Shown here: positions 1 to 64,000 of the stretch, piece after piece
Layout of the letters: the number at the start of each line of letters is the position of its first letter
How positions within the stretch are numbered: position 1 is the first letter of the stretch
Source: Escherichia coli
GTDB lineage: Bacteria > Pseudomonadota > Gammaproteobacteria > Enterobacterales > Enterobacteriaceae
Length of the DNA stretch: 64,000 nucleotides
Strand: one strand, 5' to 3'
NCBI RefSeq assembly: GCF_044324875.1
Contig: NZ_CP172185.1
Position numbers and translations under genes: made by a program
Notes under the pieces: generated by a model
What the model saw: only the letters and a program-made list of their open reading frames with translations
Databases searched by the model: none
Told to the model about the DNA's origin: nothing

Positions 1-845
1 TTTATCGTTTTCGTGGTGCCAGCAATGCACTGTCGCATCCGGCACTGAACGGGGCGGACCGTCTCTGGCTGACGCAAAGTTTTCGTTTTGGTCCTGCCGT
101 GGCCGGGGTGGCCAGCCAGTTACTGAAGCGTGCCGGCGAGAGCCGTGAGGTGACCGGCAGGGGCGGGGATGATGAAGTGCTGACGGCAGGTGAAATGCGT
201 GCGCGCGTGAAGGCAGGGAAGATGACCGGTCACAGGGCGATACTGAGCCGGACGGTGGCCGGTGTGATTGGCACCGCACTGATGGCGGCAATGCGTGGCA
301 GGAAGGTTTACTGGGTGGGGGGCATTGAAGGCTACAGAACGGAGGCACTGGAAGATCTTTACTGGTTTCAGATGGATATGCCGGAGCGGATGCACAGTGA
401 CAGACTGCGGAAGGACTACCGGGGTTTTGACGAGTACCGTCATATTGCGAAGGTGACGAAGGATGTGGAAATGAATCAGTCCATTCGTCTGCTGGAGCTG
501 TGCTTTCCGCTGCCGAAGAAACTCGAACTTCTCAGAAAGCACACCGTCACGAATGAACAGGAGGCGGATATCACGGTCTCAACGGCACACCGCAGTAAGG
601 GACTGGAGTGGTCACTGGTGGTACTCGATGATGATTTTCAGGATATCACCGACCCGCTGATAAGCGAGCAGGAGCGGCGGGATGAAACCAATCTGCTCTA
701 TGTGGCGGTCACCCGGGCGCGCAGAACGCTGGTTCTCAATGAACTCATGCAGCAGCTGACGGAAGCTGCCGGCGATGGTGGTGCACCCGGAAACGCGCCG
801 GTGCAGGGGAAGGAAGACGATGGTGTGGAGGGAGAGGATGTTTAA
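1..845 (+). CDS. Superfamily-1 (UvrD/RecD-like) DNA helicase, C-terminal part; 5' end lies outside the window
   Basis: Frame 3 is open from position 3 to the stop at 843-845. Translation shows SF1 motifs: YRFRGA (motif III-like) at the window edge, TAHRSKGLEW (motif V), YVAVTRAR (motif VI). Confidence 0.6.
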   Translation, partial: YRFRGASNALSHPALNGADRLWLTQSFRFGPAVAGVASQLLKRAGESREVTGRGGDDEVLTAGEMRARVKAGKMTGHRAILSRTVAGVIGTALMAAMRGRKVYWVGGIEGYRTEALEDLYWFQMDMPERMHSDRLRKDYRGFDEYRHIAKVTKDVEMNQSIRLLELCFPLPKKLELLRKHTVTNEQEADITVSTAHRSKGLEWSLVVLDDDFQDITDPLISEQERRDETNLLYVAVTRARRTLVLNELMQQLTEAAGDGGAPGNAPVQGKEDDGVEGEDV

Positions 846-2367
846 GCGGTTCAGACGTATGCTGCCCGGCACAAAGGGCACGGAGCCTGGCGTGGTCGCG
901 CCGGTGATACCGGCAGGGTTTTATGCGCCGCTCACGGCAGAGGCACTGTTATCACCAGAGCACAGGGAGCTGAGGCTCAGGCAGGTCTGGGATAACAATC
1001 CGATGCCCCGTGATGTATACGACAGGATGTGCCTTGAACCACTCAGCCGGCTGCTGCTGAACACCCAGAACGTCCCGGCAACACGGGAAGGACGGTGGTC
1101 CCGTGCCGGTGGATTTGGTGATCTGACGGTACTGTACACCACGTATGCCGTTCGTCTGGCAAGAGGGTACATGTTTCCACCGGATGCGACCCCGGAAGAC
1201 CAGGCGGCTCAGGCCGCAGTCTGGCATGCGGTGATTTTCTGGTCAGCGCTGTTTTACCACCTGCCCCTGCTGGCGCACCTTGAGGGGGAACTGCTGAGTG
1301 GGCGGGGCTGGCAGCCAGGAATTTCTGTGCCTGACGAACCTTTCCGTTTCCGGTTCAGGAAGACGGCGCCGCAGGGTACGGAAGCGCAACAACTTGCGGC
1401 CCTGACTGCCGGCACGCTGTTACCGGACGGCGCAACGGCCTGGCTTGTGACGGCGCCGGGCGCACTGCAGAATCTGGCCGGGGCGCTCTGGCATCAGCAT
1501 CCCGGGATGGCGCTGATTCGTGATGTGCTGCAGGAAGCGGCAAGGCAGACAGAGAGTCCGCTGAATACCTGCGCTGTCACTGCGCCGGTTACTGCGGAGG
1601 CTTCAGCAGACATCCGTCCTGCTGACCCGGTGGTGACCGGCAGCACGGACAGTGTGGTGGCAGTCACTGAGGTGCAGCCGGCAGAGGAGGTGAAGACTGA
1701 GAGCGTGCAGACAGAGACTGAAGGTGGTGGTGAGTCCGCCGGGGCGTCAGAGGTGCCGTCCGCACAGCAGGAACTGACGGTTCAGACAGCGCCAGTGGTG
1801 ACGGCAGATGATGAAGCGGTCAGTGCTGCTCCTGCGGATCAGGACACAGCAATGCTGCTGAGTCTTTTTTCAGCAGATGAGTCCGAAACTGCTGAACCTG
1901 AAAACAGTATTAAATCGTCAGCCGATCGGGACGGCCAAAGTGACGTACCGGCAGTACAGGGAGAACAAACCAGCGTTATTTATCCGGAGGGCGAAGCAGA
2001 TACGGAAGAGGTGGATTTTATTACTTGGCTGAAATCGGGGTTGTCATCGGGGATGATTGAAATAAATACACCTTCCGCGAGAGTGCATTGTATTGCGGGG
2101 TATGTTTTTTTGTGTGTCCCGGATATTTTTTATCTGTATCAGAAAATGACGGGAAGCCGTCGTGACCGCAGGAGTGTTCAGGCGTTGTTTGAACGTTCCC
2201 GTATTCACAAAATCCGGGAAGGTGAGCGTTTTTTCAGCCTGCATCTGTATAGTGTACCTGACAGAACAGGGAGTTATAAAGCTGTAAGCGGATATCTGGT
2301 TAAAAGCCGTTATCTGTGTGGTTATAACGCAGTGCCCGGGGACAGTGAATACATTGCTTTTCCATAA
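775..2367 (+). CDS. Hypothetical island protein (530 aa as maximal ORF) with a central acidic low-complexity linker
   Basis: Long ORF overlapping the helicase stop. Alternative starts at 820 (AGGAAG upstream) or 838. Residues ~265-420 are rich in T/E/A/V/S/D/Q; N- and C-terminal parts look globular. No family recognised from memory. Confidence 0.5.
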   Translation: MVVHPETRRCRGRKTMVWRERMFKRFRRMLPGTKGTEPGVVAPVIPAGFYAPLTAEALLSPEHRELRLRQVWDNNPMPRDVYDRMCLEPLSRLLLNTQNVPATREGRWSRAGGFGDLTVLYTTYAVRLARGYMFPPDATPEDQAAQAAVWHAVIFWSALFYHLPLLAHLEGELLSGRGWQPGISVPDEPFRFRFRKTAPQGTEAQQLAALTAGTLLPDGATAWLVTAPGALQNLAGALWHQHPGMALIRDVLQEAARQTESPLNTCAVTAPVTAEASADIRPADPVVTGSTDSVVAVTEVQPAEEVKTESVQTETEGGGESAGASEVPSAQQELTVQTAPVVTADDEAVSAAPADQDTAMLLSLFSADESETAEPENSIKSSADRDGQSDVPAVQGEQTSVIYPEGEADTEEVDFITWLKSGLSSGMIEINTPSARVHCIAGYVFLCVPDIFYLYQKMTGSRRDRRSVQALFERSRIHKIREGERFFSLHLYSVPDRTGSYKAVSGYLVKSRYLCGYNAVPGDSEYIAFP

Positions 2368-2397
2368 CAGCACCGGGTCATTCATCCGTTCAGGGAG

Positions 2398-3510
2398 ATG
2401 TATTCCCCTATGAAGAAAGATGTCGAAAAAATAACGTGGGAGGAATTACTCTTTGAGTACTTCCTTGAGAAAAATCTTAAACCTGATACTGAACACAGCT
2501 ACCGCAAAGTTGTCCGTCTGTTTGATAAGTTCCTGGGCGGTGATTCCTGGCCCGGCGATGTCACACCGAGAGACATTCAGCGATGGCGACGTCATATGCT
2601 TAAAGATCAGGGGCGTTCAGTAAACACCTGGAATAACAGAGTGTCACATCTCCGACCGCTCCTGGCGCTTGGGATCAAGAAAAAGTGGTTACCACAGACG
2701 GAAAATCCGCTTGATGGCACTTCAGTGCCCGGGGCATCAAAACAGAAAAAAACGCTCACTGATAAAGAGATGGTCAGGATTTACCGTACAGTTCAGGCTT
2801 TTGCTGAAGCTGAGGCCAATAAGATGGTGATCTGTGACAGGCGGCGCAATGCGATGTACCCTGCATGGTACTGGCTGATCGTGCTGGATACGCTGCGCTT
2901 CACGGGGATGCGTTTTAACCAGCTGAAACATATCAGGCTGAAGGATATTCATGAGGATGAGGCGGTGATTACCCTTCAGCTGGAAGGGAGTAAAACCCGA
3001 CGTGAATGGCGTGTGCCGATTGTGGAATCGTTACGACTTTCACTGAAACATCTTATTGAGTGCGCCCGTGTCAATGGTGCGTCGGATAATGACTATCTCT
3101 TTGATGTCTGCCTGTACAGCGAGCATTACAGTCCCGGGAAATACCAGTACTGTGCCAAAAGAGCGCATCAGTCGGTCAAATCTTTTTTCCGCAGACTGAG
3201 CCGTGAATGTGGTTTTTTTGTCTCGTCACACAGATTCAGACACACACTGGCAACAAAGCTGATGGCGGCACCGGAGCGTAATCTGCACATGGTCAAATCC
3301 ATTCTGGGGCACAGGAGTGTTGCCACCACCATGGAGTATATTGATTTTTCGGTGGAAGTTGCTGCTGAGGCACTGGAGGCTGAACTCGGTTTATCCACGG
3401 ATGAGGCGACAAAAAGACGGATTAAAGAGGCGAAAAAACGCCGTGAGGCCAGTACCGGGAAAAAGGAAAAACAGGAAAGTTCTGGAGGGGAACTTTCTGA
3501 CAAGGAATAA
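2398..3510 (+). CDS. int: Tyrosine-type site-specific recombinase / integrase
   Basis: Conserved catalytic signature: TGMR..QL (box I Arg), HRFRHT (HxxR), GHRSVATTMEY (His and Tyr nucleophile). Adjacent to the tRNA 3' end. Start may be the ATG at 2410. Confidence 0.8.
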   Translation: MYSPMKKDVEKITWEELLFEYFLEKNLKPDTEHSYRKVVRLFDKFLGGDSWPGDVTPRDIQRWRRHMLKDQGRSVNTWNNRVSHLRPLLALGIKKKWLPQTENPLDGTSVPGASKQKKTLTDKEMVRIYRTVQAFAEAEANKMVICDRRRNAMYPAWYWLIVLDTLRFTGMRFNQLKHIRLKDIHEDEAVITLQLEGSKTRREWRVPIVESLRLSLKHLIECARVNGASDNDYLFDVCLYSEHYSPGKYQYCAKRAHQSVKSFFRRLSRECGFFVSSHRFRHTLATKLMAAPERNLHMVKSILGHRSVATTMEYIDFSVEVAAEALEAELGLSTDEATKRRIKEAKKRREASTGKKEKQESSGGELSDKE

Positions 3511-3713
3511 ACATGCTTGACATCGGACCAGAATGGTGTAAGCATTTTTGCGTATGCGAGAGCGTGACACCTGTTACCAGCAGGTGCCACGCTTGAGGAT
3601 ACGATACTGAAACCACAGTGTAACCAGACTTACACGGAGATTTCGTTATGACCGGATCCTGTATTAGACGCCCGTTAAGGATCTCATCCCTTAACCAGCG
3701 TACTTTGATGCGT

Positions 3714-3789
3714 TTGGTGCCCGGAGGCGGAATCGAACCACCGACACGGGGATTTTCAATCCCCTGCTCTACCGACTGAGCTATCCGGG
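3714..3789 (-). tRNA. pheV: tRNA-Phe (GAA anticodon), 76 nt including CCA
   Basis: Reverse complement is GCCCGGATAGCTCAGTCGGTAGAGCAGGGGATTGAAAATCCCCGTGTCGGTGGTTCGATTCCGCCTCCGGGCACCA. Matches E. coli tRNA-Phe except for the T-stem (see findings). Confidence 0.9.
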
Positions 3790-3895
3790 CAACGGGGCGC
3801 ATTAAACCTGATTCGCCTCGTCTCGTCAATCAAATTTCTTCAATTTACTGCAGACTGCACAATCTATCATCACTTTGCCGCTAATGCACGCATTG

Positions 3896-4624
3896 TCAGG
3901 CAAACCAGGCGGTCCAGGCGGCGGAAAGCGGCATTGCCAGAAGGAGTGCTGGAAGCATGTTGACCACCGGGAACATTTTAATGCCACAGATGCGTAATCC
4001 GGTTGCCAGCAGCAATAAACCGCCTACGGCGCTGAAGTCTGCCATCATCGACGGTGTGGTCAGCGGTAATATCAGCGCGGCAGCCCACGCCAGCGTTAAC
4101 TGGATGATCAGTAATGGGATACTAATTACCGACACCGCAATACCCAACGAGCAGGCGAAGATCATCGCCGTAAAGAAATCGAGAAATGACTTGGCGATTA
4201 AAATACTCGGATCGCCGGTCATCCCTTCGTTCATCGCCCCGAAGATCCCGGTGCCGCTGGCGCAAAACAGGACAATAATCGCGACATAATTCTGAATAAA
4301 AGATTCATGCGCTGGCTTCTTACGTGAGTGGCGAAACAGATTTTGTGCTTTGGTGACCGCGGTATTGACGCCTTTTTCCAGCAGACAAATTTCGCCGATT
4401 AATGCACCGAGTAAGGTTGCTAACACCATCGCCGGAAGGTTGGCGCATTTCACCACCAGTAAAATACCAATCCCCAGCGATGCCAGACCAAAAATTGATG
4501 TCATGGAGACGCGGATACGTTCCGGTAAGCGTTGGCTAAGGAGTGCACCGAGAACGCCACCCAGTAATACTGCACTTGCGTTGATAAAAGGACCGATGAC
4601 CACAAGAGTTCCTGTTAGCTGCAT
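3896..4624 (-). CDS. yqgA: Inner-membrane protein YqgA (DUF554 family)
   Basis: Polytopic hydrophobic ORF; sequence and position match K-12 YqgA between pheV and speC. Confidence 0.85.
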   Translation of the reverse strand: MQLTGTLVVIGPFINASAVLLGGVLGALLSQRLPERIRVSMTSIFGLASLGIGILLVVKCANLPAMVLATLLGALIGEICLLEKGVNTAVTKAQNLFRHSRKKPAHESFIQNYVAIIVLFCASGTGIFGAMNEGMTGDPSILIAKSFLDFFTAMIFACSLGIAVSVISIPLLIIQLTLAWAAALILPLTTPSMMADFSAVGGLLLLATGLRICGIKMFPVVNMLPALLLAMPLSAAWTAWFA

Positions 4625-48756: not shown

Positions 48757-48857
48757 GCCTGATGCGCTACGCTTATCAGGCCTACACGTATCCTGCAATA
48801 TATTGAATTCGCAGGTTTTTGTAGGCCGGATAAGGCGTTCACGCCGCATCCGGCATG
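48757..48857. repeat. REP/BIME cluster
   Basis: GCCTGATGCGCTACGCTTATCAGGCCTACA and GTAGGCCGGATAAGGCGTTCACGCCGCATCCGGCA units. Confidence 0.6.
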
Positions 48858-49049: not shown

Positions 49050-49925
<876 letters not shown>

Positions 49926-49966
49926 TCATGTAAAGCGCCCATGAAGTTCATGGGCGCACTACCAAT

Positions 49967-51010
49967 TTAACGCATTGTTTCATCGAGTATATTGGCAACT
50001 TTTTGCATGACTTCCCCGGCTTTCTCCACGCCTTCCTTATTTTGCTTTTCTACCCACTGTGCTTGTTCTTGCTGATAACCGATCGCTTTCTGCCAGGCGT
50101 CCAGCCCTGATTTTTTCAGATAGCGAACCTGTGCACCTTCCTGCTCAAGCGTTTTTACCATGCTGATCAGGTTGTTATCTAATGCCTTGCCCAGTGCTTT
50201 CTCGGTTGTAATGGCAGCTCGTTGAATAGCCTCACGATCTCTGTTATCAAGGTTTTCCCACGATTGTTTATTCATTACCAACAGATAAACATGACCAAGC
50301 CAGAGAGAAGGTGAGAGCAACACATTCGGCGCAGCACGTTCAGCATGGATGTCATATCCGCTATCGAGATTGACCATTAAACCATCCAGTTTTCCATCCA
50401 TGAGTGCTTTAGTTATTTGATCATTCCACGGTAAAGTTACGGTTTTTGCCCCCGTATGAGTTAAATAAGCCCGATGCCAGAAACTGGCTGTTCGCCAGGT
50501 GGTTCCCTGAAGCGCAGTCAATTTATCAATGGGCCTGGTAGAGAAAAAGCCTACCGGGTAGCCAAGGAAAAACTGTAAATTCACGATATTGTTACGCTCA
50601 AGTTCAGCGTTAAATTCGGGAATTTCCGCATATACGCGACGAAAGAATTCTACCTGACTGGCTCCATGATCCGGGCCAATAGCAAAGCTCTTGAAGATTT
50701 GATGAAGCGGCAATTGTTTCGCGGTGTATTCCGGCACCACTATACCCATATCAGCTTTGCTGCCATCGCTTATTGTCGTCAGAGCGTCATAGCTGATGGC
50801 GGTTTCACCGTTCCAGTGTGGTTCGATTTTCAAACGCCCCTGCGACTCTTTTTCAATTTCTGCAAAAAATATCTCTTTAATTATTTGTGTACGCATTCCC
50901 CCGTAGGGTTCATGGTCTGTATAACGAAGAATTTTTTCAGCAGCAAAAATCGAGGGAGATAACAGAAGAAATCCTGATAAAAGAAAGGGGAGTAATTGTC
51001 GGTAGTGCAT
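49967..51010 (-). CDS. Orphan periplasmic solute-binding protein, DctP (TRAP) family, 347 aa
   Basis: Signal peptide; aligns by eye with the dctP-like protein at 17494-18480 (WRTAS vs GTRSF, LMDGKLDG vs QQGVVDG, LVMNKQSWENL vs LVISTKTWNKL). No permease genes adjacent. Confidence 0.7.
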   Translation of the reverse strand: MHYRQLLPFLLSGFLLLSPSIFAAEKILRYTDHEPYGGMRTQIIKEIFFAEIEKESQGRLKIEPHWNGETAISYDALTTISDGSKADMGIVVPEYTAKQLPLHQIFKSFAIGPDHGASQVEFFRRVYAEIPEFNAELERNNIVNLQFFLGYPVGFFSTRPIDKLTALQGTTWRTASFWHRAYLTHTGAKTVTLPWNDQITKALMDGKLDGLMVNLDSGYDIHAERAAPNVLLSPSLWLGHVYLLVMNKQSWENLDNRDREAIQRAAITTEKALGKALDNNLISMVKTLEQEGAQVRYLKKSGLDAWQKAIGYQQEQAQWVEKQNKEGVEKAGEVMQKVANILDETMR

Positions 51011-51125
51011 ATCTGTTCCTTCAGTTTATTAATTCAACTTATACTATATTAATTTTATCAATTATCCCTAATGTTATTCCTGCGCTATAGTCTGCGCATC
51101 AGATAATTAGCCCGGAATTAATTAC

Positions 51126-62989: not shown

Positions 62990-63140
62990 ACGATGGCAGG
63001 GCAGCATGGTGCTGTAACGGTAAAGCCCTCACCGAAGCGAGGGCTTGAAGGAGAAGGGTTATGATGCGACTTGTCATCATACTGATTGTACTGTTACTCA
63101 TAAGTTTCCCAGCTTATTAACAGTCAGTCTCAGGGGAGGA
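62990..63140 (-). ncRNA. sibC: Antisense antitoxin sRNA SibC (approximate boundaries)
   Basis: Inferred from the ibsC position and the known antisense arrangement; ends not determinable by eye. Confidence 0.35.
63061..63120 (+). CDS. ibsC: Type I toxin small hydrophobic peptide IbsC (19 aa)
   Basis: MMRLVIILIVLLLISFPAY with RBS GGAG upstream, in the serA–ygfA spacer where the sibC/ibsC locus lies in E. coli. Confidence 0.6.
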   Translation: MMRLVIILIVLLLISFPAY

Positions 63141-63220
63141 GTCATCCTCCCTTACCCTTACTCACTAAATTAGGTTAAAGAATCAACGATGTCAATCAGG
63201 GCGATGCAGGTGTGTCGCCC

Positions 63221-63841: not shown

Positions 63842-64000
63842 AGGGAATCTCCGAGATGCCGCCGCAGGCTGTAACCCTTGAACCCTTGGTTCAAGGTGAA
63901 TGTGTCGTCGCAGTTTTAAGGCTTCTCGGACGGACCGAGCATGCTCACCAACCGCGGAGCGCCACATTCTTGTGGTATGAAATATCGGCTCAGGGGACTG
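63842..64000 (-). ncRNA. ssrS: 6S RNA, 3' 159 nt (5' end beyond the window)
   Basis: Reverse complement matches the 6S RNA sequence ...CAGUCCCCUGAGCCGAUAUUUCAUACCACAAGAAUGUGGCGCUCCGCGGUUGGUGAGCAUGCUCGG...GGAGAUUCCCU; directly upstream of ygfA as in E. coli. Confidence 0.8.

Follow-up and report, generated by a model that had tools for sequence, protein, structure and literature searches.

The integrase end of a very probable ICEEc2-like integrative and conjugative element in the pheV tRNA gene of Escherichia coli

The stretch of DNA analysed here, called the window in the following, comprises 64,000 nt of Escherichia coli contig NZ_CP172185.1 (RefSeq assembly GCF_044324875.1). Its first 3.8 kb are very probably the integrase end of an ICEEc2-like integrative and conjugative element (ICE) of the pKLC102/PAGI-2/PAPI-1/SPI-7 family, inserted in the tRNA-Phe gene pheV. 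The features on the pheV side lie within positions 1-3,790, with 3.7 kb of the element visible. In this region three open reading frames (ORFs) on the plus strand are directed toward tRNA-Phe: a helicase fragment, an ORF of 509 or 530 aa (traI), and a tyrosine recombinase of 366 or 370 aa (int). The tRNA gene itself, tRNA-Phe(GAA), is found on the minus strand at 3715-3790, and is the sole tRNA that ARAGORN reports for the whole window; Rfam agrees, with an intact match of 69 bits. Beyond it follow yqgA, speC, nupG, mltC and mutY, which is the neighbourhood of pheV. In K-12 MG1655, yghD comes directly after pheV and the helicase, traI and int are all absent there, and the three genes are therefore extra DNA. 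This agrees with the initial annotation of the locus, in which the two genes upstream of the recombinase were said to have no K-12 counterpart. The G+C content is 0.59-0.65 over 1-1900 and 0.44-0.51 from about 2000, with a flank of about 0.50. A conserved chromosomal locus of E. coli is ruled out as an explanation of the arrangement: K-12 differs, and the integrase allele of the window (at least 99% identity) is present in 8 of 5,426 complete genomes.

The first of the three genes runs off the start of the window, where the ORF and its translation (1..845, plus strand) correspond to the final 281 codons, and thus the 3' part, of a gene for a UvrD-like SF1 helicase. In identical copies elsewhere the full-length gene has 502 codons, and its stop overlaps the start of traI by 8 nt. 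The copy in strain TUM1886, which is 100% identical, carries the RefSeq annotation WP_073268020.1. At full length the protein has Pfam matches to UvrD_C, UvrD_C_2, UvrD-helicase and AAA_19. There are also weak NCBIfam matches to Rep, PcrA, UvrD and helicase IV.

The second gene, traI (838..2367, plus strand; the longest ORF starts from 775), had been taken for a gene of a 530-aa unknown protein. This label has to be given up, as the product is the TraI protein of PFGI-1/SPI-7-type ICEs and belongs, as argued below, with the MOBH3 clade of the relaxase family. Against NCBIfam TIGR03760 (ICE_TraI_Pfluor; 'integrating conjugative element relaxase, PFGI-1 class') it scores 193 bits, where the curated cut-off is 161.4, and it reaches 74.5 bits against the MobH model. 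Pfam recognises TraI_2 at the N-terminus and TraI_2_C at the C-terminus, and the two domains are joined by an acidic linker rich in Ala, Glu, Val and Ser. The C-terminal domain matches PDB 2ipq ('hypothetical protein STY4665', a Salmonella protein from SPI-7) with an E-value of 7.7e-19. A TraI of the PFGI-1 class encoded beside an integrase is a mark of this ICE family, and traI does adjoin the integrase gene here.

The assignment to a relaxase family does not in this case imply the familiar catalytic residues. When TraI is aligned with the canonical MobH relaxases of ICEHin1056, of the Pseudomonas aeruginosa plasmid pBJ86 and of the Vibrio plasmid pVS127, the alternative 3H motif SE.HHH is replaced by TREGRW (with GRW in the place of HHH), DH is replaced by DL, and HD..GK is replaced by FYHLPL (YH, in the context LFYHLPL). 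The combination of HHH and HD phosphohydrolase motifs in TraI_2, which characterises the canonical MOBH relaxases of MOBH1 and MOBH2, is thus absent from the window TraI, and the full motif set is kept by none of the 64 TraI homologues that adjoin this integrase clade. By its sequence the window TraI fits the motif-less MOBH3 clade. Heilers et al. (PMC6736028) state that members of MOBH3 have neither motif, count 2IPQ and 3KQ5 among them, and mention that an alternative function has been suggested; they also show that in the gonococcal TraI, the only MOBH relaxase studied biochemically, the alternative-3H and HD motifs are both essential for cleavage. Since the HHH and HD motifs are absent, 'relaxase' has to be read for the window TraI as the name of a family and not as a demonstrated activity. 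A reading in which these widespread tRNA-Phe ICEs do not use TraI as their nickase seems unlikely.

The third gene, int (2410..3510, plus strand, with an alternative ATG at 2398), encodes an Xer-like ('simple') tyrosine recombinase. Its stop lies 204 bp from the 3' end of the tRNA, close to the 200 bp estimated at first. The NCBIfam matches are of the XerA/XerC/XerD type, all under the equivalog cut-offs, Pfam reports Phage_integrase and SAM-like N-terminal domains, and among solved structures those of archaeal XerA (5hxy and 4a8e) come closest. No P4-type family or domain match came from the NCBIfam, Pfam and solved-structure searches, in keeping with the early impression that the integrase is not P4-like. 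The catalytic residues R168, K195, H274, R277, H301 and Y310 are invariant across four integrase alleles. An Xer-like recombinase at the element end, beside the 3' end of a tRNA gene, is a further mark of the ICE family that is present in the window. A passage in PMC8138268 places the integrases of ICEEc2 and PAPI-1 in the IntKX subgroup of simple tyrosine recombinases; from this placement and the Xer-like matches, we infer that the window integrase may belong to IntKX as well. The protein clusters that contain the integrase and TraI bear generic names only, with no ICEEc2 label. Each of the two exact proteins is found on at least 1,000 contigs.

Outside E. coli, the integrase was followed in a wider scan, in which the integrase alignment was run against one genome per species. 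This returned 80 loci, all in Enterobacterales and with 38-56% identity, from genera including Pectobacterium, Xenorhabdus, Serratia, Pantoea, Erwinia, Enterobacter, Citrobacter, Klebsiella, Yersinia and Morganella. The gene directly upstream of the integrase is traI in 68 of the 80 loci, and a UvrD-like helicase is found upstream in 15. In 35 of 60 loci scanned for tRNA genes, tRNA-Phe lies on the opposite strand 200-400 bp downstream of the integrase; a tRNA of any other kind was found in this place in none of the 60.

Positions 1-3800 of the window have identical counterparts in other RefSeq genomes. Identity is 100% with TUM1886, APEC E19035 and GF43 and 99.7-99.8% with another five genomes, and the matching copies are annotated as a UvrD-helicase, a TraI domain protein, a tyrosine recombinase and tRNA-Phe. 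Most of the hosts of this element are chicken isolates. In the seven genomes with the window's integrase allele in which the element was sized, it measures 70.9-86.1 kb. The near-identical copies (99.8-100% over 1-3800) are complete elements of 71-86 kb that end at this point, which supports the original view of an island end at the tRNA-Phe 3' end with its cargo cut off by the window edge. The element type is already known, and the exact sequence is annotated in RefSeq genomes. In TUM1886, the maintenance block encodes ParA, dnaB-PI ('SPI-7-type island replicative DNA helicase'), ParB, proteins of the STY4528 and STY4534 families, topoisomerase III (TopB) and Ssb. The transfer genes are those for TraD, more than 10 TIGR037xx ICE proteins, a conjugative ATPase and a pilL-V type IVb pilus, together with a shufflon. 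As cargo, the copy carries iha, a type III restriction-modification system, an EcoRI-family methyltransferase with an HNH endonuclease, ccdAB and ardA.

Different parts of the element differ in how widely they are found. The helicase-traI part is present at 99% identity or more in about 35 records, and the ParA end of the ICE family (at least 80% coverage) in 100 of the 5,426 genomes. An integrase allele with 79% identity occurs in 13 of these genomes, compared with the 8 given above for the allele of the window. Compared with TUM1886, the window has 0 differences over 1-3909 and then 255 mismatches over 21 kb, or about 12 per kb (about 1.2%), so the same element end is found in different chromosomal backgrounds. 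On the sequence level this indicates a recent horizontal transfer of the element. As a separate observation, the ICE end matches 100% elsewhere, and window positions 3800-64000 reach just 98.3-98.9% in the best complete E. coli genomes of the collection.

The DNA upstream of position 1 is out of view, and it is conceivable that the integrase end belongs to a decayed remnant, in which the upstream conjugation genes have been deleted or disrupted and the island has become immobile. Relatives of the element do decay: in the TUM1886 copy some of the cargo genes are frameshifted and fragments of insertion sequences (ISs) are present, in 25 of 60 related loci there is no tRNA after the integrase, and Xenorhabdus has loci with N-terminal TraI matches only. 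However, the three genes in view are intact and do not differ from their counterparts in full-length elements, the copies of this integrase allele that were sized, seven in number, all fall in the range given above, and zero substitutions in 3.9 kb argues for a very recent arrival. A remnant is accordingly quite improbable. There is still less to be said for a new defence or cargo island that has borrowed an ICE-type integration module and carries a novel system upstream of the window, a hope raised in the initial annotation. Copies with the same allele do vary in size by their variable cargo regions (70.9-86.1 kb), and in TUM1886 restriction-modification genes, an HNH/methyltransferase pair, ccdAB and ardA are among the cargo. 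But no part of such a system lies in the window, the cargo of the identical-ended TUM1886 copy consists of annotated, ordinary gene types, and the backbone there is that of a complete ICE, which is more than a minimal integration module; the expectation of a novel system is thus unsupported, and this explanation is very improbable. A classical genomic or pathogenicity island of the GI-pheV kind, with a P4-family integrase and not self-transmissible, is hardly credible at all, although pheV is well known to host such islands, in about half of the complete E. coli genomes (PMC11537424), and a P4-type island stands in tandem with the ICE in strains AR_0089 and E24377A, since GI-pheV is defined by intP4 adjoining pheV (PMC11537424), which is absent here, the family, domain and structure searches with their Xer-type matches rule out a P4-type integrase for the visible part, traI and the helicase precede the integrase, and identical copies hold a full conjugation apparatus.

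The ICE reading leads one to expect an attachment (att) site within the tRNA gene and a second copy at the other end of the element. The boundaries were taken from the far end of the TUM1886 element and from a comparison with K-12 pheV. The integrase-side copy of a 50-nt att repeat lies at 3715..3764 and is formed by the 3' two-thirds of tRNA-Phe. A far att site within the window is impossible, as the element runs off position 1. In TUM1886 the far copy is found 84.8 kb away and 47 bp before parA, which has the same orientation; in the strain of the window, a second copy of TGGTGCCCGGACTCGGAATCGAACCAAGGACACGGGGATTTTCAATCCCC would be expected just ahead of parA if the element is complete. The far copy, also 50 nt long, has 4 mismatches to the window copy (at 3726, 3727, 3741 and 3742). 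For this reason a search of the TUM1886 locus with the window tRNA end, in which up to 3 mismatches were allowed, found nothing, and the copy was detected by reading the sequence. A direct repeat of the tRNA-Phe 3' end at the far boundary, for which the initial annotation had proposed a search, is thereby found in TUM1886. At the far end of that copy, both the 3' end and the terminator of pheV are native and agree with K-12 at every base, and in six other genomes with the window's integrase allele the far-end query matched from the repeat onward.

The tRNA-Phe of the window is a chimera: its 5' part is chromosomal, and the T-arm and the 3' strand of the acceptor stem come from the element. The T-stem is of the element type, GGUGG/CCGCC, where native E. 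coli pheV has CUUGG/CCGAG. Pairs 49-65 and 50-64 have changed from C-G and U-A to G-C and G-C, such that pairing is kept. The same T-stem is supplied by all three ICE variants that have tRNA-Phe directly after int (window, AR_0089 and S19-651). The T-stem bases of the element type are found on the integrase side and the native E. coli T-stem at the far end, which places strand exchange within the 22-nt block that is identical in both att copies (3743..3764), from the anticodon arm to the variable loop. In AR_0089-type elements, which are found in many poultry strains, the att remnant at the far end (L088 409-486) is annotated in RefSeq as 'tRNA-Ser'; ARAGORN finds no tRNA in it. This 'tRNA-Ser' is probably an annotation artefact, and really a 3' fragment of tRNA-Phe. 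In AR_0089 itself, shortly after the far att remnant comes a tyrosine recombinase gene that belongs to another island, resulting in a tandem arrangement.

The commoner poultry-type element of AR_0089 is also informative with regard to the history of the visible genes. The window matches it at 99.8% identity as far as position 1897, which falls within the TraI linker. Right of this position, the TraI C-terminal domain has 41% and the integrase 47% amino-acid identity, and the att arm differs as well. The drop in G+C content coincides with the breakpoint. On the basis of the blastn breakpoints, the protein identities and this drop, an exchanged module can be delimited at 1897..3714, comprising the TraI C-terminal domain, the integrase and the att arm. 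E. coli has at least four integrase alleles, which are 47-78% identical. In the six pairs that can be formed from four E. coli types, the identities of TraI C-terminal domain and integrase are 41/47, 76/78, 57/60, 46/46, 43/49 and 55/64; those of the TraI N-terminal domain, in the same order, are 100, 68, 65, 68, 65 and 63, and do not track the integrase. The C-terminal domain of TraI thus appears to be inherited as a unit with the integrase and the att arm, and not with its own N-terminal domain. When the element is circular, the TraI C-terminal domain, int and the att arm make up one contiguous segment through attP, and physical adjacency alone may be the full explanation of this co-inheritance.

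Between int and the tRNA gene, the last 200 bp of the element hold a promoter-like site and several hairpins. The promoter-like site (3517..3545, plus strand) faces outward: it begins right after the int stop and points to the tRNA across the attachment site. In it, TTGACA at 3517-3522 and AAGCAT at 3540-3545 are separated by a 17-nt spacer that has TGT as its last bases. Four E. coli alleles that have diverged keep the pattern TTGACA-N17/18-TG.AA..AT, as do many Enterobacterales genera with integrases that are only 40-55% identical, and it persists even where the int stop sits 150 nt further away. A consensus promoter scanner made no call in 3300-3900, because the -10 element matches at 3 of 6 positions and the rule is 4 of 6. 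With the scanner silent, it is conservation alone that argues for a promoter.

About 15 nt downstream follows hairpin 1 (3561..3593), which is terminator-like and has a stem of 13 positions with a 7-nt loop. The stem is made up of 12 Watson-Crick pairs and one A·C mismatch, which becomes G·U on the minus strand; the fold energy is -23.8 kcal/mol on the plus strand and -23.3 kcal/mol on the minus strand, with z about -5. A hairpin is found at this position in 37 of 37 relatives, with unrelated stem sequences and with two-sided changes at all 6 consensus pairs. In these relatives an A-tract lies ahead of the hairpin (CGAGAAAAG) and a pyrimidine- or T-tract behind it, as in a two-way intrinsic terminator. 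Comparing the strands by energies and G·U counts over the 37 loci, the minus strand is better in 21 and the plus strand in 14. Closer to the tRNA, about 20 nt from its 3' end, lies hairpin 3 (3674..3695; GTTAAGG, an 8-nt loop, CCTTAAC), which is conserved with partial covariation. Together, the promoter-like site, the covarying hairpin and two further hairpins (3517-3695) form a cassette that is kept across ICEs of Enterobacterales. The terminal 150 nt of the element fold far better than shuffled sequences (z of -5.3 and -5.5 for the two strands). Rfam, searched over 3300-3900 with a permissive threshold, returned nothing but the tRNA, so the hairpins match no described RNA family. Between element types the last 120-145 bp have 83-86% nucleotide identity, compared with 66% for the adjacent integrase gene; for this, window 3593-3737 was compared with the E24377A element (L006 3001-3148) and 23 other genomes. 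What comes after the ICE end in E24377A is not an intact tRNA but a degenerate fragment of one, along with a yee/cbtA-type island.

What this cassette might do can be considered from the example of PAPI-1, in which circularisation reportedly joins an integrase-end promoter to soj (PMC2654960, citing Qiu 2006). As parA in TUM1886 lies 47 bp past the far att copy, in the same orientation, a PAPI-1-like switch is plausible: circularisation would point the conserved outward promoter at parA. On the other strand, hairpin 1 could replace the pheV terminator, which integration moves to the element's far end. The end hairpins were also considered as a candidate origin of transfer (oriT), as MOBH origins require an inverted repeat beside nic (PMC6736028); the literature searched gave no information on the position of oriT in the pKLC102/SPI-7-type ICE family.

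The visible genes, namely the UvrD-like helicase, the MOBH3 TraI and the Xer-like integrase, are the DNA-mobility module of the element. In the proposed mechanism, the integrase would recombine the two 50-nt repeats, by which a circle is released and pheV is restored. TraI with the helicase would then process the DNA at the origin of transfer and ready it as single-stranded DNA. TraD would act with a type IVb pilus and a secretion system of the ICE type (MPF_G), these two being encoded further upstream, to carry one strand to the recipient; a role of the pilus in ICEEc2 mating is cited in a passage of PMC4458695. In the recipient, the integrase may insert the element site-specifically into either of the phe tRNA genes, pheV or pheU, and the element would provide a functional 3' end for the tRNA. 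As long as the element is circular, the outward promoter after int would face parA, like soj in PAPI-1. Even when integrated, the element may be able to promote Hfr-like chromosome transfer (PMC13127887). The two insertion sites agree with the literature, in which pheV and pheU are hot spots for ICEEc2-type ICEs (PMC11537424, PMC13127887), and ICEs at both sites undergo transfer and cause Hfr-like mobilisation of the chromosome (PMC13127887).

Some points weigh against identifying the visible end as that of an ICEEc2-like ICE. With 3.7 kb of the element inside the window, the ICE backbone, the cargo and the far att site are seen in the copies of other strains only. The likeness to ICEEc2 is drawn from descriptions, and with at least four integrase alleles in E. 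coli, a shared family does not single out one of them. In addition, TraI is without the alternative-3H and HD motifs, and its role as nickase in the mechanism above is an assumption. Set against the identical full-length copies, the PFGI-1-class TraI and the att repeat, an ICEEc2-like ICE nevertheless stays the very probable identity of the element.

Such ICEs spread through poultry-associated and human E. coli, and their cargo includes adhesin, iron-uptake and restriction-modification genes. Hybrid pandemic clones have been linked to the Hfr-like transfer of large chromosome segments that these ICEs can drive from pheV or pheU (PMC13127887). The question of how DNA is processed by MOBH3 TraI proteins, which lack the motifs, was already raised in PMC6736028 and also covers the element of the window. 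What goes beyond a routine annotation is the chimeric tRNA-Phe with its compensated T-stem, the exchange of a module made up of the TraI C-terminal domain, int and att, and the promoter-hairpin cassette conserved across Enterobacterales.

A few features elsewhere in the window are mentioned for completeness. Between mscS and argO there is a segment of 1.1 kb (49903-51047) that is absent from TUM1886. It contains an ORF of 347 aa on the minus strand (49967-51010), with a signal-peptide-like start and a resemblance to solute-binding proteins. Rfam gives gathering-level matches to the small RNA ES036 (CssrF) at 48778-48820, to the Sib antitoxin RNA at 63045-63195 and to 6S RNA at 63844-64000, the last of which is cut by the end of the window; all three are ordinary core-genome RNAs.

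Among known systems, ICEEc2 is the closest by description. Roche et al. (2010, J Bacteriol 192:5026) are said to have found it in the avian E. coli strain BEN374, at pheU, and their abstract reportedly names three genes for DNA mobility, a helicase, traI and int. Both elements are ICEs of the pKLC102/PAGI-2 family in E. coli, located by a phe tRNA gene and equipped with a type IV pilus and few DNA-mobility genes, and both are mostly associated with poultry, chicken being the main host of the element in the window. They differ in that ICEEc2 was described at pheU and the window copy is at pheV. Passages on ICEEc2 in PMC11537424, PMC6761156 and PMC4458695 describe it as a PAPI-like ICE of the pKLC102/PAGI-2 family in tRNA-Phe.

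Insertion in tRNA-Phe is shared with SPI-7 of Salmonella Typhi, CTnscr94, YAPI, HAI2, ICEPan and ICEKp2. With this group the full copy also has in common dnaB-PI, the STY4528 and STY4534 families and the pil operon, the TraI C-terminal domain resembles STY4665, and the layout of traI, int and tRNA-Phe recurs across Enterobacterales. However, the integrases of other genera are only 38-56% identical, and a UvrD-like helicase precedes traI in 15 of 80 loci. ICEKp2 differs further in having no cargo in common with ICEEc2 (PMC6761156). With PAPI-1 and pKLC102 of Pseudomonas aeruginosa, the element shares soj/parA at one end and an Xer-like integrase by a tRNA gene at the other, as well as a type IVb pilus and an ICE-type secretion system. 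The integrase-end promoter that is joined to soj in PAPI-1 (PMC2654960) has a likely counterpart, compared by description, in the conserved outward promoter of the window; in contrast, PAPI-1 and pKLC102 target tRNA-Lys (PMC6761156), and the element in the window targets tRNA-Phe. MOBH relaxases such as TraI of the gonococcal genetic island and MobH of ICEHin1056 and of the SXT type have the same plan of TraI_2, disordered linker and TraI_2_C (PMC6736028), but in the window TraI their HHH and HD are replaced by GRW and YH. Finally, GI-pheV uses the same insertion site and has a direct repeat of the tRNA 3' end, and the ICE and GI-pheV can be in tandem; unlike the element described here, GI-pheV has a P4-family integrase and no conjugation genes, and is found in about 52% of complete genomes (PMC11537424).

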